A stretch of 64,000 nt of DNA from Gammaproteobacteria bacterium (GTDB lineage Bacteria; Pseudomonadota; Gammaproteobacteria; Eutrophobiales; Eutrophobiaceae): the NCBI GenBank assembly GCA_965222155.1, contig CBDCTH010000012.1:1600001-1664000 (forward strand), in the 5' to 3' direction. Made by a program: the position numbers and the translations under genes. A model generated the notes under the pieces. That model was not told the DNA's origin. It searched no databases and was given only the letters and a program-made list of their open reading frames with translations. This document shows, one piece after another, positions 9,943 to 61,303 of this stretch (its first letter is position 1; each line of letters begins with the position of its first letter).

Positions 9943-10278
9943 CCCGGATATCTCACCAATTGATGCGATGATCGCACAGGATTTTGGCTGCCAGTGGGCG
10001 CCGGAGCCTGCCCCGTACTTGATACGGGGACCGAAAGCATAGCCGTAGCTATGGTTGAGGAAGCATGTGCCCACTGGCAGCCAAAAGACAAGCGAGACAA
10101 ATCGGCAGGACAGCCGATTTGCACGGCGACAGCCGCCCACAGGGTTGCGTCCAAGGACGGACACAATGAACGCATCAAGCGCAGTGTGTGATGATGCCAT
10201 GACCCGAATTAACCAGGTAACTATTTGATAGCACACAAGTTTCAGTCTACCTCCAAGCGGATTGATGAGATATGCGGG
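9943..10278 (-). mobile_element. MITE family A (IS1380-like ends), copy 1
   Basis: TIRs CCCGGATATCTCACCAAT / ATTGATGAGATATGCGGG flanked by CTAG on both sides (9939-9942, 10279-10282). Hairpin-rich interior with no real ORF. Confidence 0.85.
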
Positions 10279-10282
10279 CTAG

Positions 10283-10441
10283 CGTTCGGCAGAACAGGCG
10301 GGGCGCTTACGGGCCAAGGGGTATCGCAGTCACATCCAGCGTAAGGGGACGCGCAACCGGCCGTTGACGGCCCGGGAGAAACAAGGCAAGCGCACCCGGG
10401 CGAAGGTGCGCGCTCGGGTTGAACATGTGTTTGGCGCGCAG
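10283..10441 (+). pseudogene. IS5-family transposase fragment
   Basis: Translates RSAEQAGRLRAKGYRSHIQRKGTRNRPLT...KVRARVEHVFGAQ (IS5 C-terminal R.RVEHVFG motif); begins right at the MITE TSD. Confidence 0.85.
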
Positions 10442-10508
10442 TGCAGGTTACGGGCGAAGGCGCTACGACTGGTAGCACGTTACCAGCGGCATTTTGACCT
10501 TCTACCCT

Positions 10509-10841
10509 TTATCGGGATACGCTCTTCTCCAGCGCTTGCATAATCCAACTATTCAGGCTCATGCCGCTTTCTACCGCCGAGTATGCAACGCGTTGATGCA
10601 GGTCCGGACCAAGCCGGACGTTGAGCTTGCCCGAGAAAGGCTTCCGGGGCTCGACGCCGTCCTCCTTACAGGAAGTGAGGTATTCGTCGACGGAACTGTG
10701 GAACTCGTTTTGAATCTCATCCACGTCGGTAGCTTCAAAGGTGGCAATCGGATAGGCACCGCTGTTTATGGTCCTACCGTGAAGACGGCCCACGGAATCG
10801 TCGAACTCCACCACGGCGACGTATCCCTTGTACTCTATCAT
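10509..10841 (-). CDS. hicB: HicB-family antitoxin
   Basis: MIEYKGY...F..SVDEYL..C...G.EPRKPFSGKLNVRL...SLNSWI. Confidence 0.93.
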   Translation of the reverse strand: MIEYKGYVAVVEFDDSVGRLHGRTINSGAYPIATFEATDVDEIQNEFHSSVDEYLTSCKEDGVEPRKPFSGKLNVRLGPDLHQRVAYSAVESGMSLNSWIMQALEKSVSR

Positions 10842-11174: not shown

Positions 11175-11354
11175 CAGCAGTTCCCGCTAACTCCGGGACC
11201 GAGGGCATCCTGCACTCGTGGAGGGCAAGACGCCCTCCCTCCCAGGGAAACATGCCCCGTTATGGTCAGAGTATGCCCGGGACTCCTGGGGGACAGATTT
11301 AAATCTGTCCCCCCCCTGTCTTCTGTATTCACCTCGAGTTAGCGGGAGCACCTG
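11175..11354 (+). mobile_element. MITE family B, copy 1
   Basis: Ends CAGCAGTTCCCGCTAACTC / GAGTTAGCGGGAGCACCTG. A 9-bp direct repeat TTGACAACA lies on both sides (11166-11174, 11355-11363). Contains GAGGGCATCCTGC../GAGGGCAAGACGCCCTC hairpins and the GGGGACAGATTTAAATCTGTCCCC palindrome. Confidence 0.85.
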
Positions 11355-11458: not shown

Positions 11459-11481
11459 GAGACGCAATTGTGCGTCTCTAC
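11459..11481 (-). repeat. GTAG-type REP-like hairpin (GTAGAGACGCACAATTGCGTCTC)
   Basis: GTAG tetranucleotide followed by a palindrome; overlaps the hflX stop codon. A degenerate partner GTAGAGAC is at about 11426. Confidence 0.6.
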
Positions 11482-12635
11482 ATTTCAGCAGCAGGGCTCC
11501 CCCACGTCCTGTCTCCTGTTCTCAGTTCTTCGTGAATGAGCAGTTTCAGTTCCGCCAGGCCGGCTCCGGTCCGGGCTGAAACCCAGGCGCGCGCACTGGC
11601 GCCGTTGATACTACTGCTCACAACCGTCTGCAGATCGCCATTTCCGGATTCAAACCCGGACTGGTCGATTTTATTAAAGACAAGGATCTGTGGAATAGAC
11701 ATGGCCCCCAACTCGTCTATCACCTTATTCACCTCCTCAATGCGCATCTGCTGGTCATCGTTGATGTCAACGATGTGCAATAATAAATTAGCGCTTTTAA
11801 TTTCATCCAGTGTGGCATGGAAAGACTCCACCAGGTCATGGGGGATATGCCGGATAAAACCTACCGTATCGCTGAGAAGTACCGATAGATCATCAGCCAG
11901 GCGGGCCTTCCTGATAGTCGGGTCCAGTGTGGCGAACAGCTTGTCGGCACAATAAACGTCGGCGCCGGTCAAGCGGTTAAAGAGCGTGGACTTGCCGGCG
12001 TTGGTATACCCTACCAGTGAAATGACAGCGGTATTATTGCGCCGGCGTAATCGTCTCCCTTGCTCTCTCCGGCTTTTCACTTTCTCAAGTCGCCCGCGGA
12101 TAGTTTTAATCCGCTTACCGATTAAACGTCTGTCAGTCTCCAACTGGGTTTCGCCGGGTCCCCTCAGGCCGATACCGCCTTTTTGTCTTTCCAGGTGCGA
12201 CCAACCGCGCACCAGCCGCGTAGACAAATGTCGCAACTGCGCCAGTTCGACCTGCAGCTTACCCTCGTAAGTTCTGGCCCGCTGGGAGAAAATATCGAGA
12301 ATCAATCCGACCCGATCAACAACCCGGCAATTTATTTTCTGCTCAAGATTGCGTTCCTGCGCCGGCGATAAACCATGATTGAAGATCACTACATCAGCAT
12401 CGTGTTCCAGGGCAGCTTGTCTGATCTCCTCCATCTTGCCTGAACCGATGAAAAACCTGGCATCGGGTTTTGCCCGGCTGCCGGTAATCGTACCTGAAGG
12501 GACCAGGCCGGAGGATTCGGTAAGTCGCACGAATTCGTGCAACTCTTCGTTGTAACGCGGGTTTTGAAAATTGATATGGACAAGGACGGCGCGTGGGTCG
12601 TTCGGGGAAACTGTGTTCAGGGTATTAACCCGCAT
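11478..12635 (-). CDS. hflX: Ribosome-splitting GTPase HflX
   Basis: HLERQKGGIGLRGPGETQLETDRR, GYTNAGKST, LFATLDPT, DTVGF and NKID motifs; 385 aa, lacks the distal C-terminal domain. Confidence 0.97.
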   Translation of the reverse strand: MRVNTLNTVSPNDPRAVLVHINFQNPRYNEELHEFVRLTESSGLVPSGTITGSRAKPDARFFIGSGKMEEIRQAALEHDADVVIFNHGLSPAQERNLEQKINCRVVDRVGLILDIFSQRARTYEGKLQVELAQLRHLSTRLVRGWSHLERQKGGIGLRGPGETQLETDRRLIGKRIKTIRGRLEKVKSRREQGRRLRRRNNTAVISLVGYTNAGKSTLFNRLTGADVYCADKLFATLDPTIRKARLADDLSVLLSDTVGFIRHIPHDLVESFHATLDEIKSANLLLHIVDINDDQQMRIEEVNKVIDELGAMSIPQILVFNKIDQSGFESGNGDLQTVVSSSINGASARAWVSARTGAGLAELKLLIHEELRTGDRTWGSPAAEM

Positions 12636-13033
12636 TTCTCACCAGTTCGCTTGTTGTCATCGGCTAGTTGTTTGCTGTCAATACGTTATAATAGTCTGCT
12701 CACTATATTAACACAACAGACTGTGCTTGATGCGCCCTCGCTTGTCTTTTAGATGCGCTCCATCCTTGGAGCGCCCCCTTCGGGCACTCTTCGAGTGTCC
12801 AAATCCATTCCAGATGGATTTGTGCCGCCAGCGGGCACGTGTTCATTGCGCCCCTCCCCCTGCTCAACTCCATACAGAGCTTGCCCCTGCGGTTGTAAGC
12901 AGGGGGGCAGGCTCTGGGCGCAACCCTGCGGGCGGCTGTCGCCGTGCAAATCGTCAGTCCTAGGGTGTGCGCCATGGAAGGCGCACATCTAAAATCCGGC
13001 GCGATCATCGCATCAACTGGTGAGAAATGCGGG
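12629..13033 (+). mobile_element. MITE family A, copy 2
   Basis: Perfect 19-bp TIR CCCGCATTTCTCACCAGTT / AACTGGTGAGAAATGCGGG; TTAA on both sides (12625-12628, 13034-13037). Confidence 0.9.
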
Positions 13034-17168: not shown

Positions 17169-17345
17169 CAGCAAGTTCCCGCTAACTCCCTGGAGCGAGG
17201 GCATCCTGCCCTTGTGGAGGGCGAGACGCCCTCGCTCCCAAGGGAAAATGCCCGTGACTCCCGGGGGACAGATTTAAATCTGTCCCCTGTGTCTTCTAAT
17301 CCGGCAAAAATCACTGTATTGACCTCGATTTAGCGAGAGCACCTG
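17169..17345 (+). mobile_element. MITE family B, copy 2
   Basis: CAGCAAGTTCCCGCTAACTC ... GATTTAGCGAGAGCACCTG with the same internal hairpins and palindrome (17264-17287). Degenerate flanking repeat ACACTATTTC / ACACTACTC. Confidence 0.82.
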
Positions 17346-17443: not shown

Positions 17444-18769
17444 ATGCAGAAACGCCTGTCATATTTCACAAAGATTACCGGTCCCGCCGCGGTAATGGCG
17501 GCCGCGGCCATGGGCGCAGGCTCTGTTTCAACATTGATTCTTGCCGGGGCATGGTTTCGTTATGAGTTGCTCTGGATGGTCTTGCTGACGCTGCCGCTCC
17601 TGGTGATCGCGGTCGATTCTGCCTCGCGCATCGGCCTGCTCAATAAAGACAAGGGCATGTTTTCACTCATTTCCGAACACATCCATCCCGGCGTTGCCTG
17701 GGTGATCCTGGCGATTAATGTTCCCGTCCACCTTTTCATCGGTATGGGCCAGATGTCAGTCGTAACCTCGTCGGCGCTGTCCCTGTTTGGCTTCCACCCG
17801 CCTGCCACGTCTGCGGCTTTCGAGAACAGTTATTTCCAGACTTTGGATATGATCGTATCCCTGGTATTTGCGTCCGGTATCATATGGTTGCTGACCTCGG
17901 AAGGTTACCAGCGTATGCAGAAGTTCATGACGGCATTCATGCTGCTGATATTCATCTGTTTTCTCATTGTTGCACTACGTGGCTTTCAGGAAATCAGCGC
18001 CATATTGTCCGGTTTCGCGCTGAGTGTTCCCGCTGATTTACCGGTCCCTTCCCGGGACATTGTCCGCAGCAGCGGGATTACCGTCCTTGCCATTGTCGGC
18101 AGCGCCCTGGCGCCGGCGTCCATGCTTGGCATTTCCTACATGAGCGCGGACAACCGGCAGGCGGGCATCATGGATTTTAACCAGGAATTTCGGAAATCCG
18201 TCATTAACCTGGGTTTTATTTACGGCAGCAGTTCGCTGTTCATCATTATTGCCGGTGGGTTTGCCCTGTTCCCTCTGGCTAACCACGCTGAAATCGATTC
18301 CGTCCATGAGGCCAGTCTAATATTAGTACGGGTTTTCCCCCGCGGACTTGAATTTCTTGGACCTACCATATTTACCTTCGGCATGCTCATCGCCGGCCTG
18401 ACCACCTTTATCGTGGCCGTAGAAGTGATCAGTTATTTCATACTCGATATGTTCGGTTTCGACTGGCACCACTCAAAGGAAAATAAACGCTTCAGGAGGA
18501 CAGTGACGATATGTATTATTGTCCCGGCACTGCTGGCGCCTTTGTGGACTTTTCCCGCTTTGTTCAAACTCCTGTTGTTAATGGGAGTCAACGCCATAGT
18601 CGTACCGATGGTGTTTTTGGCAGTAATCATCATGGTGAACAGAAAGTCTGTCATGGGAGAATATACCAGCAGCATCTACAGAAATATTATACTGGTGGCA
18701 GCGTTCCTGCTATCAGTTACCATATCGTTCATCAAGTTGCCTGAGTTTATTCAAATATTGACCGGTTGA
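17444..18769 (+). CDS. NRAMP-related (divalent metal transporter-like) membrane protein, paralogue 1
   Basis: GPAAVMAAAAMGAGS....AGAWFRYELLW start, many TM segments and NRKSVMGEY C-terminal motif; the DPGN motif is replaced by GAGS. Confidence 0.8.
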   Translation: MQKRLSYFTKITGPAAVMAAAAMGAGSVSTLILAGAWFRYELLWMVLLTLPLLVIAVDSASRIGLLNKDKGMFSLISEHIHPGVAWVILAINVPVHLFIGMGQMSVVTSSALSLFGFHPPATSAAFENSYFQTLDMIVSLVFASGIIWLLTSEGYQRMQKFMTAFMLLIFICFLIVALRGFQEISAILSGFALSVPADLPVPSRDIVRSSGITVLAIVGSALAPASMLGISYMSADNRQAGIMDFNQEFRKSVINLGFIYGSSSLFIIIAGGFALFPLANHAEIDSVHEASLILVRVFPRGLEFLGPTIFTFGMLIAGLTTFIVAVEVISYFILDMFGFDWHHSKENKRFRRTVTICIIVPALLAPLWTFPALFKLLLLMGVNAIVVPMVFLAVIIMVNRKSVMGEYTSSIYRNIILVAAFLLSVTISFIKLPEFIQILTG

Positions 18770-26198: not shown

Positions 26199-26233
26199 TG
26201 TGCTAATCGTAAACATGATTTACAATTAGCACA
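26199..26233. promoter_or_regulatory. 35-bp palindrome abutting the ATPase start codon
   Basis: TGTGCTAATCGTAAA-CATGA-TTTACAATTAGCACA, 14 of 15 arm positions complementary. Confidence 0.7.
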
Positions 26234-27396
26234 TGATAATTCCAAGAGAAATCACACAAACAGTCATCGACGATCTTGAACACTTTCCGGCCGTAGCCAT
26301 TCTCGGACCCAGGCAGGCAGGTAAAACAACGTTAGCAAAGTCAGTGACCGGAACGCGTCCTGATACCTTGTATCTCGATCTCGAACGCCACTCTCACCTG
26401 GCACAATTACAGGATGCCGAGGCGTTTCTCTCTCTGCATCAGGATAAACTGGTTTGTATCGACGAGGTACAATTAAGACCGGATCTGTTCCCGTTGTTGC
26501 GCGCGTTAATTGACGACCACCCGAAACCGGGACGATTTCTGATCCTGGGGTCATCATCTCCGGATTTACTGCGGCAATCATCCGAAACACTGGCAGGCAG
26601 GTTATCTTATGTGTACATCACGCCGTTCCACCAGCGCGAGCTGCTACGAGCGGAAGATAAATTGAAGGACTGGAGCGAGATGTTATGGCGTGGTGGCTTT
26701 CCGAAAAGTTATCTGGCAGACACTAATGCGCGCAGCTTCCGCTGGCGTGAGAACTATATACAAAGTTTCGTTGAGCGGGACCTGCGTCAGTTCGGCATTG
26801 AACTGAACCCTCAATACATGCGCAGACTCTGGTTGATGTGTTGCCACCTGCATGGGCAGACGGTCAACTACTCCGGACTGGGACAATCACTGGATGTAAC
26901 CCATCCCACCTTGAAACGCCATATCGATGTTTTTGAAGCCACCTTCATGATGCGCCGGCTTCCTCCTTTTGCAGTGAATACAAAAAAACGTCTGGTGAAA
27001 TCTCCCAAGCTATACATCCGGGACTCCGGACTGGTGATTTGTCTGCTCGACCTGGACAGCTTTGACAAATTGTATGGGCACCCTGCCTATGGCGCTTGCT
27101 GGGAAGGCTTTGCTGTGGAGAATATCCTGAGCATGTTAAAGCCGCGGGGAATATACGGCTTTTTCAGGACTCTCACCGGCCAAGAGATTGATCTTGTCAT
27201 AGAGCATCAAGGAAAGCGGCTTGGTTTTGAATTCAAAACATCATCAAGTCCACAACTCAACAGTGGCAACAAAGTTGCCGCCAACCTATTGAACCTGGAT
27301 AAACTCTTCGTAGTCGTTCCACAGGGAAATGCTTACCCCATCGCAGCTGACAAAGTCTGGGTGTGCCCGCTTGAACAACTTGAGCAATACCTCTAG
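26233..27396 (+). CDS. AAA+ ATPase (AAA_14) with DUF4143 and a C-terminal PD-(D/E)xK-like motif
   Basis: GPRQAGKTT, IDEVQ, ESLAGR-like SETLAGR, RGGFP, KSPKLYIRDSG and EIDL...FEFK motifs. Confidence 0.92.
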   Translation: MIIPREITQTVIDDLEHFPAVAILGPRQAGKTTLAKSVTGTRPDTLYLDLERHSHLAQLQDAEAFLSLHQDKLVCIDEVQLRPDLFPLLRALIDDHPKPGRFLILGSSSPDLLRQSSETLAGRLSYVYITPFHQRELLRAEDKLKDWSEMLWRGGFPKSYLADTNARSFRWRENYIQSFVERDLRQFGIELNPQYMRRLWLMCCHLHGQTVNYSGLGQSLDVTHPTLKRHIDVFEATFMMRRLPPFAVNTKKRLVKSPKLYIRDSGLVICLLDLDSFDKLYGHPAYGACWEGFAVENILSMLKPRGIYGFFRTLTGQEIDLVIEHQGKRLGFEFKTSSSPQLNSGNKVAANLLNLDKLFVVVPQGNAYPIAADKVWVCPLEQLEQYL

Positions 27397-46198: not shown

Positions 46199-47422
46199 TC
46201 ATGCTATTAAAGCAAAATGCGCGGGGGGGTTACGCGAGATCATTTGACAAACCATGAATATGAATACCCCTGCCAGCGTAGATGCAATCGCAAACAGTAT
46301 CAGCGAACCATCATAATCGCCCCTGCTTGTCACCAGATATCCGCCCAGGTAGGTCGCCAGGATAGCCCCCGCGTAGCCCAGGGTAAAAACAATACCTATT
46401 GCTTTCCCGGCACTATGCTTCGGCACAATAATTGATGCCATACTCGTAACGGTCACAATCGCTTGTGTTTGCCCCCATGTTAATATGCTGATGACCAGTG
46501 CTGTTTCCCACGGGGATAACTGCACCATGATTAGCACCAGAATCCCGATGCTTGCGACAACTCCGCCTGATAACGTAAGCCAGAGAATTCTCACCATATT
46601 CGTAGCGAAATATCCCGTCACTATAGCTGCCGGTATCATGACTAATCCAAGCATCATGGAAGACAAGCCCACTTCCGATGGAGAAAACTGATATACATCA
46701 GTCAGGTATGGAGGGATCCAGGTAGTCACCCCATAGACTTCGATAAACAGGCTGCCCATTGAAACTGCTATCAGTATCAGCATAGGATTGGATAACAGTT
46801 TCCCGAATGAATAAGGCGCCTCAGAATCCGGCAGGATCGCATTGCCGATTGGTTGTAAAGCCTGTTCCTCTTTTATCAACAGCAGGGAGTATAAAAAAAG
46901 CATGCCGCATGCCAGGGACGTGAAGAGAAAATTAACACGCCAGCCAATCTTGTCTGAAATAATCGGTGTTACCAGTAATGCGATAGTGATCCCAATGCCG
47001 ATAGTTGCATTAATCAGCCCCATACCAAATCCTACTTTTTCGGGAGGTAACGTTTTCGAAACTGCATCCGTCCCGGCAACAAAAATGATTGCGAGCAATA
47101 CCGAACCCAAAAATCTCCATAACAGCAGTAATTTGAAACTCTCGCCTATTGTTCCCAGAATGCCAAAAATACAAATCCCCAGAAGGCTCACTGACATAAT
47201 GGGTACAGCCCCCCATTTATCCGAAATATACCCTGCAGGAGAACTGGCCAGGCATTTCATTACAGCATAAACAGACATAAAAAGGCCGGCTTGCGCGTAG
47301 TTGATGTGAAGATCTGATACCAGCGTCGGTATTACGGGGGGGATTTCAAAAACCTTGATAAAGGAAATCAGTATCGACAGGATAACCAGCCGGATTACCT
47401 TGTTTTTCGAGGCCGATGGCAT
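46199..47422 (-). CDS. MFS transporter
   Basis: About 12 TM segments and motif A G.ISDKWG. Confidence 0.88.
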   Translation of the reverse strand: MPSASKNKVIRLVILSILISFIKVFEIPPVIPTLVSDLHINYAQAGLFMSVYAVMKCLASSPAGYISDKWGAVPIMSVSLLGICIFGILGTIGESFKLLLLWRFLGSVLLAIIFVAGTDAVSKTLPPEKVGFGMGLINATIGIGITIALLVTPIISDKIGWRVNFLFTSLACGMLFLYSLLLIKEEQALQPIGNAILPDSEAPYSFGKLLSNPMLILIAVSMGSLFIEVYGVTTWIPPYLTDVYQFSPSEVGLSSMMLGLVMIPAAIVTGYFATNMVRILWLTLSGGVVASIGILVLIMVQLSPWETALVISILTWGQTQAIVTVTSMASIIVPKHSAGKAIGIVFTLGYAGAILATYLGGYLVTSRGDYDGSLILFAIASTLAGVFIFMVCQMISRNPPAHFALIA

Positions 47423-47492
47423 AGTTTCTACTCAAACAGGATATCGACCCTGCGCGGGTTCATTTTCTCATCCTTCCCTTGCATCTGGTTAA

Positions 47493-48257
47493 TCAGGATT
47501 TATCATGTGAGTCTCGCCCCTTAAAAGGCACAAACTGCGCCCCCCCATAGGTCTGCTCCGTGGGCACTATCTCCATCTGACTCACATTCACCCGCCAGGG
47601 CGCGTTCACGCAGTACAGGATTGCATCCGCGATGTCGGCTGCTACCAAATCTTCGCAGTGAGTTTCGGTGATTTTTCGCAGTTGTTCGTCATCGTCGACC
47701 GCCACATTGTAAAACTCGCTGAGCACCCTCCCCGGATTGATCTCGGTGACACGTATTCCGGTGCCTTGCAGTTCCTGGCGCAGGTCCCGGGAAAGCTTAT
47801 GAATCGCCCCCTTGGTCGAGCCATAAAGTGCGGCAGGCAGTGGATATAGTGCAGTAACCGAACTCATGTTCACGATATGCCCCCGGCCCCGTTCAATCAT
47901 ACCGGGTAAGACCGCCTTGATCATCAGGATAGCGGCGGTGACATTGGTGTCGACAGTCATCTCGATATCCTTGATCTCCGCATTCCAGATCGACCCCAGG
48001 GCGCGGCCTAACCCCGCATTGTTGACCAGGATGTCTACCGGGTATTGCTCGCCAAAGGCCATGACCGCAGTGCGATCGCGCACGTCCAGTTCGATGGCAA
48101 TGCTTCCGATCTCTTGGGCCAGTTGTTCAAGACGCTCCAGGCGCCGTGCAGCCGCGTATACCTTCACGCCCCTGGAGCGCAATGCGCGAGCAGTGGCCTC
48201 GCCGATACCGCTTGAGGCGCCGGTCACCAATGCCGTTGTGTTTTCATCAAGTGCCAT
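47493..48257 (-). CDS. Short-chain dehydrogenase/reductase (YdfG-like)
   Basis: TGASSGIG, NNAG, YGSTK and EINPG motifs; likely start MALDEN. Confidence 0.93.
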   Translation of the reverse strand: MALDENTTALVTGASSGIGEATARALRSRGVKVYAAARRLERLEQLAQEIGSIAIELDVRDRTAVMAFGEQYPVDILVNNAGLGRALGSIWNAEIKDIEMTVDTNVTAAILMIKAVLPGMIERGRGHIVNMSSVTALYPLPAALYGSTKGAIHKLSRDLRQELQGTGIRVTEINPGRVLSEFYNVAVDDDEQLRKITETHCEDLVAADIADAILYCVNAPWRVNVSQMEIVPTEQTYGGAQFVPFKGRDSHDKS

Positions 48258-51788: not shown

Positions 51789-52328
51789 ATGTCGCTACGT
51801 CATGCCTTATTGGTATCCTTAAGCAGAAAACAAGGTACGGGTTATGAAATCACCTATGAATTTGACCGGGGGTTGGGGTTTTTCTGGCCGGCCAGTCACC
51901 AGCAAATCTATCAAGAACTCGGTAAAATGGCGACAGAGGGGCTGGTCGCGTTCAAACGGGTACAGCAGACCGATAAACCCCCTAAAAAAATTTACCGTTT
52001 AACCGAGAACGGGAAACAATCCCTGGTTGAATGGCTGGCCTCACCGGTAGACATGCCAGCGGTAAAAGACCCCCTGTTGATCAAACTATTTGCCGGGCAC
52101 CTGATACCAACACAAACACTGCTTGATGAAATTGACCGTCATATCGCTGACAACACTGAAATACTGTCACGATACCGCTCAATAGAGCAACAATATTTCA
52201 GCAACCCCGATGAACTGCCGGTCGCCAGCCAGTTCATGTACCTGACCCTGTTAAGGGGAATCTCGGCAAAAAAAGCGTGGCATACCTGGGCATTGCGAGT
52301 CAGGCGGTTTTTGGAAAACCGACCATAG
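51789..52328 (+). CDS. PadR/AphA-family transcriptional regulator
   Basis: MSLRHALL...TGYEI...F...LGFFW.ASHQQIY.EL and KKIY.LT..G, with an AphA-type C-terminal domain. Confidence 0.93.
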   Translation: MSLRHALLVSLSRKQGTGYEITYEFDRGLGFFWPASHQQIYQELGKMATEGLVAFKRVQQTDKPPKKIYRLTENGKQSLVEWLASPVDMPAVKDPLLIKLFAGHLIPTQTLLDEIDRHIADNTEILSRYRSIEQQYFSNPDELPVASQFMYLTLLRGISAKKAWHTWALRVRRFLENRP

Positions 52329-52742
52329 CCCGTATATCTCACCAATTCGCTTGTCATTAGCGGAAAGTTCCTTGCTGTCAATGAGATATCAGGATTATAG
52401 CATTCTGTTGCCATCACCCACTGCGCTGGATGCGCCCTCGCTTGTCTTTTTGATGCGCTCCATCCCTGGAGCGCCCCCTTCGGGCACTCTTCGAGTGTCC
52501 AAATCCATTCCAGATGGATTTGTGTCGCCAGCGGGCACGTGTTCATTGCGCCCATCCCTGGGCGCAACCCTGCGGGCGGCTGTCGCCGTGCAAATTGTCT
52601 ATCCTGACAATTTGTCCCTCAACCAGACAAATCTGCCTGGAGCAGATTTGGACATCCGAAGGATGCCCGCAGGGTGTGCGCCATGGAAGGCGCACATCAA
52701 AAATCCGGCGCGATCATCGCATCCATTGGTGAGATATACGGG
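52329..52742 (+). mobile_element. MITE family A, copy 4
   Basis: Perfect 18-bp TIR CCCGTATATCTCACCAAT / ATTGGTGAGATATACGGG; flanks ATAG and CTAG. Confidence 0.9.
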
Positions 52743-53014: not shown

Positions 53015-56000
53015 TCAAATCCCCGCACCCCCCAGCCCGTAGCGCAGCCTCAGCATGAGGCCATGGTCCGGCGACTCGAACATACGCTCCCGGCGCGCAC
53101 TCTCCAGACTCAGAGTCAGCGCGCGGCCCAGCTCGAACACCCCGCCCAACCGGTAACGCCGCCCGCCCCCGTCCACTACCAGGCCCCCATAAGGCGTGAG
53201 CAGACCGCCCCCGGTCGCCAGCCCATACCCCAACTCGGTCTCCCACCGCACCCCGCGGGACGGTGACCCAGGCCCACTGCCCCCAACGTCCGCAGCCCCC
53301 TCCCAGAGCCGCTCAACACCACCGGCCCCGGCCTGCCCGGCAGCCAGGCCGTCCACCACGCCCCACCCCGGGCGCACACGGAACGACAGCCCACGCCCGT
53401 CCGGCCCCGGCGTCAGCACCACCAGTCCCCCGACGCCCCATTCCTCGATGTCCCCCGCGTGCGCCAGCAGCGCCCGGCCATAGCCTTCTACCCGCAGCCC
53501 CCGGGCCGGATCAAACCAGACCAGCCCGCCGCCCCACTCCAGCCCGCCGCCGGTCACGCCATCGCCGCCGTCATGGCGCAGCCCCAACGCCACCGAAGGC
53601 GTCACGGTCCCGCCCCCGGCCAGGCGCTGTGCATGCGAGCCCTCCAGCGCCAGGCGCAGCCGCCACACGTCCGTCGCCAGCCCCTCAATCAACCCCGCCG
53701 CCTCCACCTCATAGCGCGAGCCCCACCACGCACCCTTGAGATTCAACACCGTCGCCCCGCCGGCAACCAGACTGTTGCCTGCAAACAGCCGCACCCGACC
53801 GCCCAGCGCCGCCGTGGCCTGCTCGCTGTCCGCGGCCTGCCGGCCGGCCTCAGCGTCCCGGAGCCGCACCTCGCCTACGCCATAACCCAGGGCGCCCCAC
53901 AGACCTAACTCGGCCCGGGGGTGCCAGCCCACGTAGGGGTAGACACTCAGCAGCCGGCTTTCATGGGCGCCCTCTATGGGCCGGTAGCCGGCCGCACCCC
54001 GGTCGGTGTAGTCAAACTCGCCCTTGGCCCAGGACAGCGCCAGACCCGCCAGCAGGTCGTCCCGGAGCCGGGCGTCCAGCCCCAGGCGGGCGCTCAACAC
54101 GGCGCCGTCCCAGTGCATCGGGTCAGCGGCCCCTGCCCGGTCGTCATCCCCCCCGGACAGGCGCCGGTAATCGCCCCCGCCCCACAGGGTGATAGTGTTC
54201 AGCCCCCCGGCGGCGGGGCCCTCGTCCAGGCGCAGGGCAAAGGACGAGCGCCCCAGCACCTCTGCCCAGCGCCCCGCACGCAGGGACTCAGCCTGCCCCC
54301 ACAGCAGCCCCGCCAGAGTCTCGGCCGGTGTGGCTGCGCCCGGCGCCGCATCGGCACTGTCAATGCGCCGCTCTACGGCGTCCAGGGTACCGGCCACCAG
54401 GGCCCGGGACAATGCCGGCAGAATGGCCCGGTTGACCCGCTTAAGCCGCGCCCGGGCCACTGCCTCGGTCTCACCGGATACCGCCAGGACTACCTTTGTG
54501 CTGACACTCAGGCCCGCCGTGTCGCTGGCCACGACCGTAAAGGGGTAGGCCGGGTGGGTCTCACGGTCCAGCACAACACCCTGCCTGAGAGACAGGGCGT
54601 GGCCGGCCACCTCGAACACCGCCGCCTGCTCACCCTCCAGGGTGAAGCGGTGTTGGTCCCCGGCGTCCGGATCAGTGGCGGACAGCGTTGCCACCTGCAC
54701 CGGGCCGGCGCGGGTGTCGAGGTTCTCGGCGATAGCGCCGTCCGTGACCGGGGCTACCCAGGTGACAATCACTTCGGTCGGTGCCTCGTTGGCATCGGTC
54801 ACGGCAAGGGTCTGCGCAGCGCCGGTGACGCTGAGGCCGCCGCCATCCGTTGCAGTGAGCGTGAAGCCATAGCTTGACTGTGTCTCGTAATCCAGCCCCA
54901 CACCCTGCTTCAGGTAGAGCGCGGCGCCGGTAATCTCGAAGATGTCCGCGCCACTGAGGCTGAAGACGTGGCTGTCGTCGGCATCGGGGTCGACCGCGGA
55001 CAGCTCGGCCAGCTGCACCGGCCCGGCACTTGTGTCCACGTCCTCAGCGATGGCGCCGTCCGTGGCCGGGGGCACCCAGGTGACAATCACTTCGGTCGGC
55101 GCCTCGTTGGCATCGGTCACGGCAAGGGTCTGCTCAGTACCGGTGACGCTGAGACCACCGCTGTCGGTCGCAGTGAGCGTGAAACCATAGCTTGACTGTG
55201 TCTCGTAATCCAGCCCCACACCCTGCTTCAGGTAGAGCGCGGCGCCGGTAATCTCGAAGAGTGTCGTATCACTGAGGCTGAAGACGTGACTGTCGTCGGC
55301 ATCGGGGTCGACCGCGGACAGGTCGGCCAGATGCACCGGCCCGGCGCTCGTGTCCACGTCCTCGGTGATGGCGCCGTCCGTGGCCGGAGGCACCCAGGTG
55401 ACAATCACTTCGGTCGGCGCCTCGTTGGCATCGGTGACGGCAAGGGTCTGCGCAGCGCCGGTGACGCTGAGACCGCCACCATCCGTTGCAGTGAGTGTGA
55501 CGCCATGGCGTGGCTGCGTCTCGTAATCCAGTATCACACCCTGCTTCAGGTAGAGCGCCGTGCCGGTAATCTCGAAGAGTGTCGTATCACTGAGGCTGAA
55601 GACATGACTGTCGTCGGCATCCGGGTCGACCGCGGACAGCTCGGCCAACTGCACCGGCCCGGCGCTCGTGTCCACGTCCTCGGCAATGGCGCCGTCCGTG
55701 ACCGGGGGCACCCAGGTGACAATCACTTCGGTCGGCGCCTCGTTGGCATCGGTCACGGCAAGGGTCTGCTCAGTACCGGTGACGCTGAGACCACCGCTGT
55801 CGGTCGCAGTGAGTGTGACGCCATGGCGTGGTTGCGTCTCGTAATCCAGTATCACACCCTGCTTCAGGTAGAGCACCGCGCCGGTAATCTCGAAGAGGGC
55901 CGTATCACTGACGCTGAAGGTATGGCGACTGTCGTCCGGGTCGACCGCGGACAGCTCGGCCAGCTTCACCGGCCCGGCGTTTGTGTCCACGTCCTCGGCG

Positions 56001-59000
56001 ATGGCGCCGTCCGTGACCGGGGGCACCCAGGCGATAATCACTTCGGTGGGCGCCTCGTTGGCATCGGTCACGGCAAGGGTCTGCTCAGTGCCGGTGACGC
56101 TGAGACCGCCGCCATCCGTTGCAGTGAGGGTGACGCCATGGCGTGGCTGCGTCTCATAATCCAGCCCTACGCCCTGCTTCAGGTAGAGCGCGGCGCCGGT
56201 AATCTCGAAAATGTCCGCACCGCGGACGCTGAAGGTATGGTGACTGTCGTCCGGGTCGGTGGCGGACAGGTTCGCCAGCTTCACCGGCCCGGCGCGTGTG
56301 TCCACGTCCTCGGCGATGGCGCCGTCCGTGACCGGGGGCACCCAGGCGATAATCACTTCGGTGGGCGCCTCGTTGGCATCGGTCACGGCAAGGGTCTGCT
56401 CAGTGCCGGTGACGCTGAGACCGCCGCCATCCGTTGCAGTGAGGGTGAAGCCATGGCGTGGCTGCGTCTCGTAATCCAGTATCACACCCTGCTTCAGGTA
56501 GAGCACCGCGCCGGTAATCTCGAAGACAGTCGTATCACTGAGGCTGAAAACGTGACTGTCGTCGGCATCGGGGTCGACCGCGGACAGCTCGGCCAGCTTC
56601 ACCGGCCCGGCGTTTGTGTCCACGTCCTCGGCGATGGCGCCGTCCGTGACCGGGGGCACCCAGGCGATAATCACTTCGGTGGGCGCCTCGTTGGCATCGG
56701 TCACGGCAAGGGTCTGCTCAGTGCCGGTGACGCTGAGACCGCCGCCATCCGTTGCAGTGAGGGTGAAGCCATGGCGTGGCTGCGTCTCATAATCCAGCCC
56801 TACGCCCTGCTTCAGGTAGAGCGCGGCGCCGGTAATCTCGAAAATGTCCGCACCGCGGACGCTGAAGGTATGGTGACTGTCGTCCGGGTCGGTGGCGGAC
56901 AGGTTCGCCAGCTTCACCGGCCCGGCGCTCGTGTCCACGTCCTCGGCCATGGCGCCGTCCGTGGCCGGGGGGACCCAACTGACAATTACCCCGGTCGGCG
57001 CAGCATTGACGGGCTCAGGGGGAGTAACAGGGGCCGGGGGTTTGACTGTGAGCCTGATCGTGACGGTCTTGGGCTCGCTGCTGAGGCCACTCTCGCTGTT
57101 GGCGGCAATCAGGGTGTAGACGGTGCCCACACGGGTCTCGACCTTCAGCTGGCTGCCAGCGGGTAGTTTATCGCCCGGATCGATGAGGACGTTGTCCTGG
57201 TTATCGCGCAGAGACAGCACGTCCGTGTTCTTGCTCACCGTCCAACTCAGGGTCGACTTGCCGTCCTTGAGCGGCGTGGCCTCGAAGCGGATGATGTCAG
57301 GCGCACCGACAGTGGCCGTGGCGCTAGCCGACCAGGTGCTTAGTCCCTGAGCGTTCACGGCCTGCACCTGCACCTGGTAGGGCTGGCCGTTATCCAGACT
57401 CGTGATAGTGGTACTGGTACCCGTGCCGGTGAAGGGGTGGTCGGTCCATGAGTTGCCCGCATCGGCACTGTAGCGGACGTTGTAGCCCGTGATGGCCGAG
57501 CCGCCGTTGCTGCCGGGCGCTTTCCATGACACCTCAAGCTGACCGTTGCCGGGGGTGAGGGTCGGGGCCGCGGGCGCAGCAGGAGGGCCGACAGGGGTTG
57601 GGGGCACGACCGGCTCCGGCTCCGGTTCCCTGATCGTGACGGTGGCCGGCTCACTCTCCAGGAGGCTGTCGCCGTTGTAGGCGACAAGGGTGTAAACCGC
57701 GCCCGCGCGGGTCTCGACCTCCAACTCGTTGTCGGCGGGCAGCCCGTCGCCCCCCGGGTCGATCAGGACGTTGCCCTGGCCGTCGGCCAGACTCAGCACA
57801 TCCGTGTTGTCGCTCACCGTCCAGCTCAGGGTCGACTTGCCGTCCTTCAGCGGCGTGGCCTCGAAACGGATGATTTCCGGCGCCTTGTAGGGGAGGCTGG
57901 CCGCAGCTTCCTCCGACTCGGTGCCGGGGCCGTCGCCGTTCACCGCCCTGATCTGGAATACATAGGCCCTACCGTTGACGAGGTTCATTACCTTGTAGGT
58001 TGTGGTGGAGGGAGCGCTGCCCGGCATGTCGACCCAGGGCCCCCAGCCAGCGCCGCCACTGTACGGGGAGCGTCGGTACTGCCACTTGATGATGGAACCA
58101 TCGCTCGGGTCGCTCCACGACAAGGACACTTCCGCGTCGCTGGCGCTGGCGCTGAAGCCCGTGGGCTTGGCCGGGGCCGAGACCGAGACCGGCGTGGCCC
58201 GGACAATGTCCGACTCGGCGCCGGGGCCGTAGCGGTTCTTCGCCCTGACCCAAAAACCATATTCTGCGCCGTTTTCGAGGTTCTCCACCGTATCGGTCGT
58301 AGTTAAGGCATCGCTGTTCGGTATATCGACCCAGCTCTCCTGTTCGCCACCGGCTTTCCCCTTGCGCACCTGCCACCCGGTGATGGTGGCATCGCCCAGG
58401 TCGTCCCACGACAGGATGACCTCGCCGTCTCCGGGCTGCGCCCGCAAACCCGTGGGCCGGGCCGGGGCGCTGCCCTGAACCGGCGTGCCGGTGACTTCCG
58501 AATTATCACCGTTACCGTGAGCGTTCACGGCCCTGACACGAAAGGCATAGTCCACGCCGTTGTTGAGGTTCTCCACCCTATAGGTCGTAGTTGAGGCAAC
58601 AACGCTGTTCGGTATATCGACCCAATTATCCCAATCACCATTGACTGCCCCCTTGCGATACTGCCACTTGGTGATGGAAGTATCGCTTGGGTTATCCCAC
58701 GACAGGGTAACTTCGCCGTCTCCGGGCGCCGCCCGCAAACCCGTGGGCCGGGCCGGCGCATCAGCCGAAACCGGTTCAGTGAAGACGATAATCGAAGGCC
58801 TCCCGGGGCCGTGGATGTTGACCGCCCGCACCCGGAAAATATACTCCATACCGTTCTGGAGGCCGCTTATCCTGAAGGTCATGGTCTGATAAGAGCTGTC
58901 CGGCACGTCGGCCCAGTTCTCCCATTGGATGGTGCCTTGCTCCGTCGGCGTACCGCGCCGGTATTGCCAGTTGGTGATCGAGGGGTCGTTCACGGCGCTC

Positions 59001-60580
59001 CAGGACAGGACGACCAGACCGTCGCCGGCCACGGCGCTGAAGTCCAATGGCTCGGCCGGGGCCGAGGACGCGACAGGGGTGGCGGAAACGTCGGGCGAAT
59101 GCTGGCCGGCGCCGTGGCTGTTCACCGCCCTGACATGAAAGCTGTGCTCCACGCCGTTGTCGAGGCCGGTCACGCTGTGCGTCGTGGTTAAAGCGACGCT
59201 GACCGGTATGTTGACCCACCCCCCCCAAACGCCGTGGGTTACCCCCTGCCGGTACTGCCACCGGGTAATGGAGGGGTCGCCCGGGTTGTCCCACGACAAC
59301 CTGACCTCAGTATCGCCCGGCGTGGCGCTGACACCGGTGGGCTGAGCCGGCGCCAGGGCCGAGATCGGCGTGGCGAACACCCTCGCTGCCGTACTCTCGC
59401 CGTCTGCGTTCACCGCCCTGATCTCGAAGACATATATTCGATCGTTGGTCAGGCCGGTTATCGTGTACGATGAATTGGCGGCGTCGCCTGGCGGTATGGC
59501 TTGCCAACTTCCGAAAGACTGGCCGGCTTCGGCCCTCCGCATCTGCCACTCGGTAATGGTGGCGTCGCCCGGGTCGTCCCACGACAATAGAACCTGGGCG
59601 TCGCCCGGCGTGGCGCTGAAACCGGTGGGCTCGGCCGGCGCCGAGGGCGAGACCGGCGTAGCCCGCACGGTGTTCGACTTGGCGCCGAAGCCGTGGGCGT
59701 TCACCGCCCTGACCTGGAAGTAATAGGGCGTACCGTTGGGGAAGCCCGTAAGCCCGACGCCTGTCCAATCGTTGCCGGGTAAATCTATCCAGGCCTGCCA
59801 TGTGCTGCCGGCGCGATATCGGATCTGCCACTTGGTGATGGTGGCATCGCCCGGGTTGTCCCAGGACAGGGTAACTTCGCCGTCTCCGGGCGTCACTCGA
59901 AAACTCGTGGGCCGGGCCGGCGCCAAGGGCGAGTGCGGCCCCTGGAAGACTGTCGAATAGTTGCCGGGGCCGTGGGTGTTGAACGCCCGCACCCGGAAAG
60001 CATAATCCTTTGTATTGTCGAGGCCCCCTACCCTGTGGCTCGTGGTGGCGGCGCCGCTGGGCACGATATCGGTCCAACTTCCCCAAGCCTCACTCGATAC
60101 TCCCATGCGGAACTGCCACTTGGTGATGGTGGTATCGCCCGGGTTATCCCAGGACAGGGTAACTTCGCCGTCTCCGGGCGCCGCCCGCAAACCCGTGGGC
60201 CGGGCCGGCGCCCGGACCGAGATCGGCGTGGCGAAAACCATCGCTGCTGTACTCTCGCCGTCTACGTTCACCGCCCTGATCTCGAAGGCGTATCGTTGAC
60301 CGTTGGTCAGGCCCGTCACCGTGTACGATGAATTGGCGGCGTCGCTTGATGGTATGGTTTGCCAATTTTCCCAAACTCCACCGACTGCCGCCTTCCGGAC
60401 CTGCCATTCGGTAATGGAGGGGTCGCTCGGGTCTTGCCATGACAGGACAACCTCGGCGTCCCCGAGCGCCGCCTGTAAACCCGTGGGCTGGGCCGGAACG
60501 GCGGCATCCGCTATTCCCGGCGCCATCAGCAACCACGCGAAGAGAAGCGCAAGCGCCTGACCGCAAACCCGCGATCTCAT
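53015..60580 (-). CDS. Giant adhesin/autotransporter: 10 FN3 domains, 2 unnamed beta-rich repeats, 8 cadherin-like repeats and a C-terminal beta-barrel
   Basis: Signal peptide; repeated PARPTG..A.PGD.EV.LSW...GL.NG..Y.F.VRAVN; repeated NEAPT...I.ED...LSA.DPD...LDYET...ATD.GGLS; C-terminal W.GGDY..LSG, YPY.GW, GLRHDGGD and ELGYG barrel strands. Confidence 0.92.
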   Translation of the reverse strand: MRSRVCGQALALLFAWLLMAPGIADAAVPAQPTGLQAALGDAEVVLSWQDPSDPSITEWQVRKAAVGGVWENWQTIPSSDAANSSYTVTGLTNGQRYAFEIRAVNVDGESTAAMVFATPISVRAPARPTGLRAAPGDGEVTLSWDNPGDTTITKWQFRMGVSSEAWGSWTDIVPSGAATTSHRVGGLDNTKDYAFRVRAFNTHGPGNYSTVFQGPHSPLAPARPTSFRVTPGDGEVTLSWDNPGDATITKWQIRYRAGSTWQAWIDLPGNDWTGVGLTGFPNGTPYYFQVRAVNAHGFGAKSNTVRATPVSPSAPAEPTGFSATPGDAQVLLSWDDPGDATITEWQMRRAEAGQSFGSWQAIPPGDAANSSYTITGLTNDRIYVFEIRAVNADGESTAARVFATPISALAPAQPTGVSATPGDTEVRLSWDNPGDPSITRWQYRQGVTHGVWGGWVNIPVSVALTTTHSVTGLDNGVEHSFHVRAVNSHGAGQHSPDVSATPVASSAPAEPLDFSAVAGDGLVVLSWSAVNDPSITNWQYRRGTPTEQGTIQWENWADVPDSSYQTMTFRISGLQNGMEYIFRVRAVNIHGPGRPSIIVFTEPVSADAPARPTGLRAAPGDGEVTLSWDNPSDTSITKWQYRKGAVNGDWDNWVDIPNSVVASTTTYRVENLNNGVDYAFRVRAVNAHGNGDNSEVTGTPVQGSAPARPTGLRAQPGDGEVILSWDDLGDATITGWQVRKGKAGGEQESWVDIPNSDALTTTDTVENLENGAEYGFWVRAKNRYGPGAESDIVRATPVSVSAPAKPTGFSASASDAEVSLSWSDPSDGSIIKWQYRRSPYSGGAGWGPWVDMPGSAPSTTTYKVMNLVNGRAYVFQIRAVNGDGPGTESEEAAASLPYKAPEIIRFEATPLKDGKSTLSWTVSDNTDVLSLADGQGNVLIDPGGDGLPADNELEVETRAGAVYTLVAYNGDSLLESEPATVTIREPEPEPVVPPTPVGPPAAPAAPTLTPGNGQLEVSWKAPGSNGGSAITGYNVRYSADAGNSWTDHPFTGTGTSTTITSLDNGQPYQVQVQAVNAQGLSTWSASATATVGAPDIIRFEATPLKDGKSTLSWTVSKNTDVLSLRDNQDNVLIDPGDKLPAGSQLKVETRVGTVYTLIAANSESGLSSEPKTVTIRLTVKPPAPVTPPEPVNAAPTGVIVSWVPPATDGAMAEDVDTSAGPVKLANLSATDPDDSHHTFSVRGADIFEITGAALYLKQGVGLDYETQPRHGFTLTATDGGGLSVTGTEQTLAVTDANEAPTEVIIAWVPPVTDGAIAEDVDTNAGPVKLAELSAVDPDADDSHVFSLSDTTVFEITGAVLYLKQGVILDYETQPRHGFTLTATDGGGLSVTGTEQTLAVTDANEAPTEVIIAWVPPVTDGAIAEDVDTRAGPVKLANLSATDPDDSHHTFSVRGADIFEITGAALYLKQGVGLDYETQPRHGVTLTATDGGGLSVTGTEQTLAVTDANEAPTEVIIAWVPPVTDGAIAEDVDTNAGPVKLAELSAVDPDDSRHTFSVSDTALFEITGAVLYLKQGVILDYETQPRHGVTLTATDSGGLSVTGTEQTLAVTDANEAPTEVIVTWVPPVTDGAIAEDVDTSAGPVQLAELSAVDPDADDSHVFSLSDTTLFEITGTALYLKQGVILDYETQPRHGVTLTATDGGGLSVTGAAQTLAVTDANEAPTEVIVTWVPPATDGAITEDVDTSAGPVHLADLSAVDPDADDSHVFSLSDTTLFEITGAALYLKQGVGLDYETQSSYGFTLTATDSGGLSVTGTEQTLAVTDANEAPTEVIVTWVPPATDGAIAEDVDTSAGPVQLAELSAVDPDADDSHVFSLSGADIFEITGAALYLKQGVGLDYETQSSYGFTLTATDGGGLSVTGAAQTLAVTDANEAPTEVIVTWVAPVTDGAIAENLDTRAGPVQVATLSATDPDAGDQHRFTLEGEQAAVFEVAGHALSLRQGVVLDRETHPAYPFTVVASDTAGLSVSTKVVLAVSGETEAVARARLKRVNRAILPALSRALVAGTLDAVERRIDSADAAPGAATPAETLAGLLWGQAESLRAGRWAEVLGRSSFALRLDEGPAAGGLNTITLWGGGDYRRLSGGDDDRAGAADPMHWDGAVLSARLGLDARLRDDLLAGLALSWAKGEFDYTDRGAAGYRPIEGAHESRLLSVYPYVGWHPRAELGLWGALGYGVGEVRLRDAEAGRQAADSEQATAALGGRVRLFAGNSLVAGGATVLNLKGAWWGSRYEVEAAGLIEGLATDVWRLRLALEGSHAQRLAGGGTVTPSVALGLRHDGGDGVTGGGLEWGGGLVWFDPARGLRVEGYGRALLAHAGDIEEWGVGGLVVLTPGPDGRGLSFRVRPGWGVVDGLAAGQAGAGGVERLWEGAADVGGSGPGSPSRGVRWETELGYGLATGGGLLTPYGGLVVDGGGRRYRLGGVFELGRALTLSLESARRERMFESPDHGLMLRLRYGLGGAGI
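54490..57008 (-). repeat. Intragenic tandem array of 8 near-identical 315-318 bp cadherin-coding units
   Basis: GCCTCGTTGGCATCGG recurs at about 54783, 55100, 55418, 55737, 56052, 56367 and 56686. Confidence 0.95.
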
Positions 60581-60783
60581 TGGGGGGGGGGGGGGGGGGG
60601 GGTGAAAGAGGATTGACGCGGGAATCCGCGCAGCCGACGCGTCAGCGAGTCAGCACTGGCGCGGGTGGAGTTGGCCACTCCGAACCCTCCTCCGTAACAA
60701 AGGTCGCTACACGCCAAGCGACCGGTTATGTGCATTGCGATCCATCGGTTAATCATGGTTGCGAACGTTACCTGTTGCTTCAT
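60577..60783 (-). other. Out-of-frame leader ORF joined to the adhesin by a C21 tract (G21 on +, 60582-60602)
   Basis: The ORF ends FTPPPPPPQ* overlapping the adhesin ATG; the start-to-start distance is 203 nt. Confidence 0.55.
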
Positions 60784-60825
60784 ACCCTGTCAACCCCGGT
60801 TGTCCGGGTTCTGTTGTCCGGGTTC

Positions 60826-60980
60826 CAGGTGCTCCCGCTAAATCGAGGTCAATACAGAAGACGGGGGGGACAGATTTAAATCTGTCCCCCAGGAGTCACG
60901 GGGCCTGTTTCCCTGGGAGGGAGGGCGTCTCGCCCTCCACGAGGGCAGGATGCCCTCGAGCCCGGGAGTTAGCGGGAGCA
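60826..60980 (-). mobile_element. MITE family B, copy 3, fused to a family A remnant
   Basis: CAGGTGCTCCCGCTAAATC ... GAGTTAGCGGGAGCAC; perfect palindrome at 60865-60890. Confidence 0.85.
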
Positions 60981-61303
60981 CGTGCCCGCTGGCGGCACAA
61001 ATCCATCTGGAATGGATTTGGACACTCGAAGAGTGCCCGAAGGGGGCGCTCCAAAGCCTGCCCCCCTGCTTACAACCGCAGGGGGGCAGGCTCTGTATGG
61101 AGTTGAGCAGGGGGATGGAGCGCATCAAAAAGACAAGCGAGACAAATCGGCAGGATAGCCGATTTGCACGGCAACAGCCGCCCGCAGGGTTGCGTACATG
61201 GATGTGCGCAATGAACGCATCAAGCGCAGTATATAATAGCAACAAAGTGATATTATCCTGATACTCGTTGACAGCAAAGAGTTTTCCGCTAACGGCAAGC
61301 GAA
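60981..61303 (-). mobile_element. MITE family A, copy 5 (both TIRs lost)
   Basis: Reverse-complement match to the interiors of copies 2 and 4 and to the left sub-terminal sequence of copy 4 (TTGACAGCAA..TTTCCGCTAA..CAAGCGAA). Confidence 0.82.

Follow-up and report, generated by a model that had tools for sequence, protein, structure and literature searches.

A lineage-specific family of IS1380-type miniature transposons whose palindromic interior carries copies of a three-hairpin unit

A stretch of 64,000 nucleotides (nt) from a Gammaproteobacteria bacterium (assembly GCA_965222155.1, contig CBDCTH010000012.1, positions 1,600,001 to 1,664,000), referred to below as the window, contains a repeat designated family A, which is a lineage-specific family of non-autonomous transposons of the IS1380 type, that is, of miniature inverted-repeat transposable elements (MITEs). 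Their interior is palindromic, and we consider it probable that it has been expanded by duplication of the element's own three-hairpin unit, that recombination homogenizes and reassorts the units, and that breakage provoked by the hairpins generates fragments. The original prediction for this stretch had proposed five IS1380-type MITE shells with reshuffled hairpin cargo moved by a second enzyme.

All five predicted copies (c1–c5) exist, and a sixth, the fragment c6, was found by self-comparison of the window (Table 1). Complete copies are 336–414 bp long and contain no transposase gene. The copies c1 and c5 are inverted relative to c2, c3, and c4. Both ends are kept in c1, c2, and c4, whereas c3 has the left end only and c5 has neither. 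The left (L) and right (R) arms are unlike each other, measuring ~108 nt and ~43–47 nt, respectively. The end pattern CCCGNATNTCTCACCA has eight matches in the window at no more than two mismatches, compared with 0.43 expected, and none of 100 shuffles reached eight. Seven of these matches are element ends, and the eighth, at 43767 with two mismatches, lies inside a gene and looks like chance. The predicted CTAG/TTAA-type 4-bp flanks were confirmed, being exact in c1 (CTAG/CTAG) and c2 (TTAA/TTAA), agreeing at three of four positions in c4 (ATAG/CTAG), and present as CTAG at the left side only in c3. The target duplications of family A are 4-bp YTAR. No Pfam family was found for the open reading frame (ORF) 60838–61416 over c5, the sole copy-overlapping ORF scanned, and a distant blastn search of a plasmid collection with c4 as the query gave no match.

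A scan of a species-representative genome collection with the end pattern yielded at least 117 loci, 80 of them with flanks. Among the matches listed, the genome of the window does not appear, and the best match reaches 87.5% over 48 nt. Also among those listed, inverted CCCGNATNTCTCACCA pairs lie 1.70–1.77 kb apart in four genomes (L002, L034/35, L045/46, and L053/54), short inverted end pairs, 73–360 bp apart, occur in nine loci, and the flanks of the related short elements are CTAG, TTAA, or close variants. Both ORFs tested in the 1.70–1.77-kb elements are IS1380-family transposases (PF13701, 1e-155 and 3e-147; NF033539, 1e-118 and 4e-116). Since the 16-nt end of family A also bounds these ~1.7-kb transposase elements, its reading as an IS1380-type MITE, as originally proposed, is supported. 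Judged by sequence, family A is an IS1380-derived MITE in the features tested, namely its ends, its short duplication, and its nature as a small, multi-copy, gene-less element. In addition, the 16-nt end occurs exactly in elements of many phyla among the matches listed (Acidobacteriota, Verrucomicrobiota, Planctomycetota, Cyanobacteria, and Myxococcota).

IS1247, a member of the IS1380 family, is 1672 bp long, with inverted repeats of 16/13 and direct repeats of 5 bp, according to the available part of PMC3281130. Family A has in common with the insertion sequences (IS) of this family (IS1247 and the ISPme1/ISEcp1 modules) the 16-nt ends starting with CC, a short duplication, and ~1.7-kb relatives with the same ends, whereas it lacks a transposase gene and shows a 4-bp rather than a 5-bp duplication. 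It also differs in that its interior is a palindrome of repeated hairpin units, with a core that was not seen in the non-coding parts of the four full-length elements examined; by eye, the core hairpin does not resemble the non-coding 3' region of the full-length IS1380 elements L002, L034, L045, and L053.

The repeated unit is 72–75 nt long and forms three hairpins, and U, U', and B are its subtypes. An alignment of six units of U, B, and U' comprises 76 columns, with a mean identity of 76% and 32 invariant columns. Three helices are common to the units, and 89.9% of cells pair in them compared with 74.9% in shuffles. In addition, 11 of the 22 pairs change on both sides, and the covariation score was reached by none of 500 shuffles, in a test made on six sequences only and with a structure derived from the same six. 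As single strands, c4 folds at -111 kcal/mol (z = -10.0) and c1 at -76.8 kcal/mol (z = -7.3), and the long hairpin of c1 is real. Perfect hairpins, with a stem of at least 9 and a loop of at most 10, number 18 in the window, 11 of which are in family A, 3 in a second repeat family (family F), and 4 elsewhere.

Two smaller hairpins, M3 and G, sit within hairpin loops. Neither U, B, nor M3 was found outside the family-A shells in the 64-kb window, where G is restricted to families A and F and one IS1380-like element. Among the matches listed, the units, M3, G, and the family-F ends were not found in loci L001–L117. By reading rather than by a formal test, the first and last bases of the unit resemble the segment beside each shell end, suggesting that the unit arose from the element itself.

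The copies differ in the blocks that they carry. The order in c1 is L, B, the linker x, stem, core, stem, R, and that in c2 is L, x, U, stem, B with M3, a remnant of inverted U', R. The most regular copy, c4, reads L, x, U, stem, B, core remnant, inverted U', R, and the truncated c5 reads L (outer part gone), B, x, U with M3, stem, followed by the family-F repeat F4. The hairpin M3 occurs in c2, c3, and c5 but not in c4, and c1 has only a diverged M3 relative, inside the core. In c3, the order is L, inverted B with M3, an inverted piece of the R arm, and U' split by G, and the copy stops at the 3' terminus of its own U' unit. A simple inversion of c2 or c4 was rejected as an account of c3, as the block order does not fit. 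A better reading of this copy is that its left arm was fused to a right-hand part in inverted orientation, with B lying inside the R arm of that part, and the junction of B beside the R arm recurs in two translated copies in public data (P0068 and P0094). The breakpoints of c3, c5, and c6 all coincide with unit junctions.

The ancestral state is given by four MITE loci of other Gammaproteobacteria (L050, L016, L063, and L072), in which both arms, the long stem, and the core of c1 are also present, and from which U, U', and B are absent. Since these outgroups have the core without the units, the long hairpin of c1 represents the ancestral centre, and the claim that it is a special cargo unique to c1 does not hold, the same stem and core being found in MITEs of other genomes. 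Empty junctions of the outgroup form are seen at the sites alpha, site 2, beta, and gamma in c1, and at site 1 in c2 and c4. These results indicate that the emptiness is ancestral and that the units are gains. In L072, extra hairpins are inserted in the homologous core, indicating that nested growth is not confined to the lineage of the window.

A wider sample was obtained from spurious proteins. A spurious ORF of 131 amino acids (aa) runs through c4, and a search with it found 91 related "proteins". A longer-protein search with the U-B-U' region gave three more matches among 991 candidates, all with both arms, a representative library contained 37 related ORFs, 15 of them new, and all 25 candidates of a third search, aimed at solo units, passed, one of them being new. 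None of the resulting 110 ORFs is encoded in the window, and the best match is 92.9% over 98 aa. One ORF, P0103 (847 aa), gave no module match and was treated as a chance match of a repeat protein, and P0104 and P0106 are distant relatives only. The translated copies were mapped by tblastn onto the window blocks, which were given by coordinates.

Among the first 94 translated copies, 53 different block strings were observed, and 88 copies were colinear with the order L, B, U, B, inverted U', core, inverted U', R; four of the six others read as classification artefacts. Site 1 was filled in 22 of the 61 copies in which it was observable, alpha in 14 of 59, site 2 in 53 of 63, beta in 26 of 82, and gamma in 25 of 51. 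Filling of a site lengthens the translated copy by 24 residues (72 nt), and the edges are sharp. Inside the R arm there is a sixth site, which is seen in P0068, P0094, and P0015 and matches one side of c3. Because 88 of the 94 copies are colinear with variable occupancy, the orders in the window reflect B at site 1 (c1 and c5) versus site 2 (c2 and c4) and not free permutation. B precedes U in c1 and c5, follows U in c2 and c4, and is inverted in c3. The reshuffling of the interiors that had been predicted is thus seen in the order, orientation, and presence of the blocks, but it is not a free reshuffle.

The mirror sites alpha and gamma co-occur (two-by-two counts 8, 1 and 9, 13; Fisher p = 0.02), although the translated copies are related to one another, so that the test overstates their independence and the association is only suggestive. 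Of 124 B units, 78 have an empty first hairpin loop and 20 contain an insert of ~27 nt there; a further 24 match in the 3' part only, reflecting a larger insert or truncation, and 2 are unclassified. By reading of the translated copies, inserts occur within inserts, up to three levels.

Units and arms have diverged unevenly. U plus the stem is identical at 74–75 of 75 positions (99–100%) among c2, c4, and c5, whereas the L arms of these copies are 64%, 67%, and 80% identical in pairwise comparisons. Between copies, M3 is 93–100% identical and B 83–94%. No copy differs from another in the linker x beside U, and c2 and c5 have the same stem, from which that of c4 departs at 1 nt. This near-identity of the flanking linker and stem along with U is as expected of a conversion tract.

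We propose that family A would be moved in trans by an IS1380-family transposase that recognizes the 16-nt ends, with insertion at YTAR and a 4-bp duplication. The interior, a long imperfect palindrome, would have grown from a shorter ancestral form, represented by the c1 centre and the related MITEs, via copies of the 72–75-nt unit that now occupy about six fixed internal sites. Duplication inside the palindrome would be rare and may have occurred by template switching or hairpin-templated repair, and a unit in one arm may have been copied into the mirror site of the other. The spread of the units from copy to copy would have involved ectopic recombination or gene conversion as well as the amplification of different master copies. 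Breakage provoked by the hairpins would then account for the truncated c3, c5, and c6 with their breakpoints at unit junctions, and the orders would differ by the position of B at site 1 or site 2 plus one inversion (c3). Transposases of the IS1380 family mis-recognize ends and mobilize neighbouring DNA, as described in the available text of PMC9330008, and such mis-recognition could explain the one-ended c3.

Several observations weigh against this proposal. The unit boundaries are sharp to 1–3 nt at every site. At site 2, the ends of B have no homology to the flanks, and therefore simple homology-driven conversion cannot have placed B there first. Two different hairpins, that of B in c2/c3 and that of U in c5, carry M3 at equivalent positions of the loop, which looks like a site-specific insertion. 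The hairpin G occurs in three unrelated contexts, namely a family-A copy, three of the four family-F copies, and a transposase gene. Furthermore, 4 of the 110 ORFs contain units without recognizable shell parts (three tandem U' in P0095, and solo B in P0097, P0107, and P0109), which fits independent dispersal; solo units lie near the detection limit and may be under-counted, and the word index retrieves few short ORFs, so that their rarity is weak evidence. The ORF survey is biased to colinear, in-frame copies, the six copies of the window are too few to show the ends of conversion tracts, the distribution of the units is that seen in 64 kb, and both the cognate transposase and the way of copying the units are what we infer.

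In an alternative that we regard as doubtful but worth retaining, the units, M3, and G would be, as the original prediction held, mobile elements resembling repetitive extragenic palindromic (REP) sequences, with a second enzyme encoded elsewhere in the genome and the shells as their preferred sites and carriers. The gain of the units relative to the outgroup MITEs, their sharp boundaries and recurring sites, the near-identity of U in shells with diverged L arms, the solo and tandem units, the loop position of M3, and the distribution of G all favour it. Compensatory changes that keep all three hairpins would be expected if a hairpin is recognized, and REP dimers that occur only inside particular palindromes offer a precedent (PMC3733652, available part). 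Conversely, U, B, and M3 remain confined to the shells in the 64 kb, whereas G does occur outside them, and the window contains no candidate gene: 50 + 17 ORF queries (65 distinct ORFs) revealed no Y1/HUH domain, REP-associated tyrosine transposase (RAYT), or TnpA. By reading, no GTAG or CGTC tag is present in the U, B, U', M3, and G hairpins or at any hairpin foot, and the flanks of the six sites have no common target motif. The resemblance of the unit ends to the sub-terminal segment of the shell points to an internal origin, and the conserved linker and stem beside U resemble a conversion tract.

The HUH/RAYT enzyme that had been predicted is accordingly not supported by the ORFs scanned in the window. 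The predicted gain of smaller units by the shell stands, on the evidence of the outgroups, the uneven divergence, and the 4 of 110 ORFs with units lacking a shell, but not their nature as foreign cargo, as the unit resembles a shell segment. Likewise, the modules expected outside the shells are seen in those four translated ORFs elsewhere, whereas U, B, and M3 offer none in the window. The more specific possibility that the unit, perhaps together with M3 and G, is a tiny mobile element copied by an enzyme outside the window into MITE sites and occasionally elsewhere, with the MITE as its vehicle, seems rather unlikely to us; if true, it would represent a nested, wholly non-coding, two-enzyme mobile system with up to three hairpin-in-hairpin levels.

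Very unlikely, in our assessment, is pure decay, in which one long colinear master held every unit and the copies arose by deletions and an inversion without any insertion. A single master order accommodates the copies c1, c2, c4, and c5 and the 88 colinear translated copies. The loss of the core from c4 resembles the outcome of a deletion between two direct copies of U', a deletion is also seen within c2, and some empty alpha sites in translated copies resemble deletion footprints. However, the outgroup MITEs of four loci lack the units, and the empty junctions of c1, c2, and c4 are in the outgroup state. The contrast between U and the L arms is incompatible with common descent at one rate, and the units are paralogues, so that they must have multiplied at some stage.

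Equally improbable is that the units are selected by the host as RNA or DNA structures (terminators or mRNA stabilizers) or as binding sites for a protein such as a transposase. The compensatory changes in 11 of 22 pairs and the very stable folds would suit such a role; in addition, c3 and c4 adjoin stop codons, c2 adjoins the hflX start, and the units repeat a motif also present beside both ends. Against this, the comparison with Rfam that the original prediction had suggested gave 0 matches over the whole window at the gathering threshold, and c1, c2, and c4 contain no promoter-like site, while terminator-like sites are at chance level. Occupancy is variable at every site, unlike a fixed functional architecture, and palindrome arms can co-vary via templated repair without selection. 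An inward promoter in the L arm that makes a small RNA gene was rejected, since no sigma-70-like site was found in c1, c2, and c4.

Compared with known small repeats, family A stands apart from REPs and from REP doublets (REPINs) with their RAYTs. REPs are defined as palindromes of 20–40 nt, one foot of which bears a conserved, unpaired tag (GTAG or CGTC), and small hairpin repeats that are located inside larger palindromes not found empty elsewhere have been described (PMC3733652, available part). REPINs have been proposed as building blocks of more complex repeats (PMC3116915, available part). The family-A units are 72–75 nt long with three hairpins, not 20–40 nt with one, and their carrier is a DDE-type MITE with target duplications, with no RAYT gene in the window. 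Unlike REPs with their dispersed extragenic copies, U, B, and M3 lie in the window only inside family-A shells. By tag and dispersal, family A falls outside the REP/RAYT group. Its workings are in part those of modular small repeats and of REPs nested in dedicated palindromes. As regards the palindrome-associated elements derived from IS200/IS605, the units insert without evident duplication, and no motif is common to the left flanks of the six sites.

Modular repeats whose modules vary in number or presence include the pneumococcal BOX elements, the enterobacterial repetitive intergenic consensus (ERIC) with internal insertions of ~70 bp, and the bacterial interspersed mosaic elements (BIMEs) of E. 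coli; some modular small repeats have insertions at fixed internal sites, and the small dispersed repeats of cyanobacteria are very small hairpins nested in other mobile elements. What sets family A apart from these parallels is that the units of a single family occupy about six sites of an IS1380-type shell, in both orientations, with nesting up to three levels. TIMEs, which are inverted-repeat miniature elements derived from Tn3, are non-autonomous, with conserved ends, and acquire varied internal content (PMC4133298, available part). TIMEs capture genes and res sites and have 5–6-bp duplications, whereas the content of family A consists of non-coding hairpin units related to the element. 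The view that no described element has such an architecture is therefore too strong, since modular and nested small repeats are known, for example the REP dimers in dedicated palindromes (PMC3733652). In the parts available to us of the literature on IS1380 and MITEs and on nested or modular MITEs, no description of family A itself was found, and one may exist elsewhere.

Table 1. Positions of the family-A copies and their blocks, the family-F repeats, and the IS1380-like element in the window.
Feature	Position	Strand	Remarks
c1	9943–10278	minus	complete; read L to R; architecture common to outgroup MITEs
c1 R arm	9943–9989
c1 ancestral long stem and core	9990–10081
c1 linker x	10082–10095
c1 unit B	10096–10170		site 1
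c1 L arm	10171–10278
c1 CTAG duplication	9939–9942 and 10279–10282
c2	12629–13033	plus	complete; TTAA duplication
c2 L arm	12629–12736
c2 linker x	12737–12750
c2 unit U	12751–12822
c2 stem	12823–12841
c2 unit B	12842–12961		site 2; 3' end truncated
c2 hairpin M3	12858–12913		in first hairpin loop of B
c2 inverted U'	12962–12990		remnant
c2 R arm	12991–13033
c3	27397–27740	plus	rearranged; left end only
c3 L arm	27397–27504
c3 inverted unit B with M3	27505–27638		M3 at 27563–27618
c3 inverted piece of R arm	27639–27652		sub-terminal
c3 unit U'	27653–27740		interrupted by hairpin G at 27666–27706
c4	52329–52742	plus	complete; most regular copy; flanks ATAG/CTAG
c4 L arm	52329–52436
c4 linker x	52437–52450
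c4 unit U	52451–52522
c4 stem	52523–52541
c4 unit B	52542–52616		site 2
c4 core remnant	52617–52627
c4 inverted U'	52628–52699
c4 R arm	52700–52742
c5	60978–61303	minus	truncated at both ends; read L to R
c5 L arm	61216–61303		outer ~20 nt lacking (88 of 108 nt left)
c5 unit B	61141–61215		site 1
c5 linker x	61128–61140
c5 unit U	60998–61127		M3 at 61054–61111 in first hairpin loop
c5 stem	60978–60997		followed by F4 (60826–60977)
c6	29092–29201	minus	lone degenerate L arm; ends exactly at the L-arm/site-1 junction
Family F	11182–11354; 17177–17345; 29372–29445 (partial); 60826–60977 (F4)		~150–175 nt
IS1380-family element	~32–1551	minus	degenerate; C-terminal ORF PF13701 4.6e-22, N-terminal ORF 1e-3

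The family-F repeats have their own inverted ends and several GC-rich hairpins. F4 carries G at 60865–60890 and is joined to c5 exactly at the site-2 junction. The sole IS1380-like element in the window is disrupted, and its ends have only the first 8 nt in common with the MITE ends, so that it is no obvious partner for family A. An insert of 34 nt (1026–1059) containing the hairpin G (1030–1054) interrupts the transposase gene of this element at the DDE motif. The insert is flanked by imperfect direct repeats of 27 nt (1060–1086 and 999–1025) with two differences, both of which are synonymous when the codons are read by eye. A direct duplication of 27 nt is unusually long for a transposon, and the repeats may be a junction between two IS copies.

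Three copies adjoin genes. c3 starts directly after the TAG stop codon (27394–27396) of a DUF4143 ATPase ORF (26233–27396), and c4 directly after the TAG stop codon (52326–52328) of a PadR-like ORF (51789–52328); both stop codons are part of the target tetranucleotide that was duplicated. At 12633–12635 on the minus strand, within the left end of c2, lies the sole in-frame ATG/GTG/TTG before the conserved N-terminus of an HflX-like ORF (11478–12635). A purine-rich stretch precedes this candidate start codon, and without the MITE a stop is met in this frame three codons upstream, so that c2 may supply the start of the HflX-like gene.

Next to c5, three fragments at 61881–62872 are 83–96% identical to parts of a major facilitator superfamily gene and a short-chain dehydrogenase gene at 47073–47850 and resemble what a partial duplication would leave behind. 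Two bases upstream of the start codon of a 2521-aa fibronectin-III (Fn3)/cadherin-repeat ORF (53015–60580, minus strand), 21 consecutive G occupy 60582–60602, possibly as a phase-variation tract or as an artefact of the assembly. This ORF contains two in-frame tandem arrays (54639–57008 and 57344–60529; periods of ~315–318 nt and ~288–303 nt), which are its repeated Fn3/cadherin-like domains. Beside the IS1380-like element, a BrnT-family toxin ORF (1760–2071, minus strand; PF04365, 2.4e-26) overlaps a small downstream ORF (1573–1788), and this pair and a PIN-domain ORF at 28208–28609 are likely toxin–antitoxin modules. Two Nramp-family paralogues of 441 aa each are encoded at 17444–18769 and 31280–32605, and a 300-nt 5' stretch of the two is 79% identical.

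The usual view of MITEs is that of simple deletion derivatives undergoing decay. In family A, by comparison, the interior of a MITE grows and diversifies, with one structured unit multiplied at fixed sites and kept homogeneous while the arms diverge. Because copies lie at gene boundaries, at two stop codons and a possible hflX start, they matter for annotation, and the "hypothetical proteins" of public databases include at least about 100 spurious ones that such elements generate. If the units are spread by recombination, family A would be a compact natural system for palindrome-driven duplication and gene conversion. If they are independently mobile, it would instead be a clear bacterial case of one non-coding element parasitizing another and would point to an unknown hairpin-recognizing enzyme.

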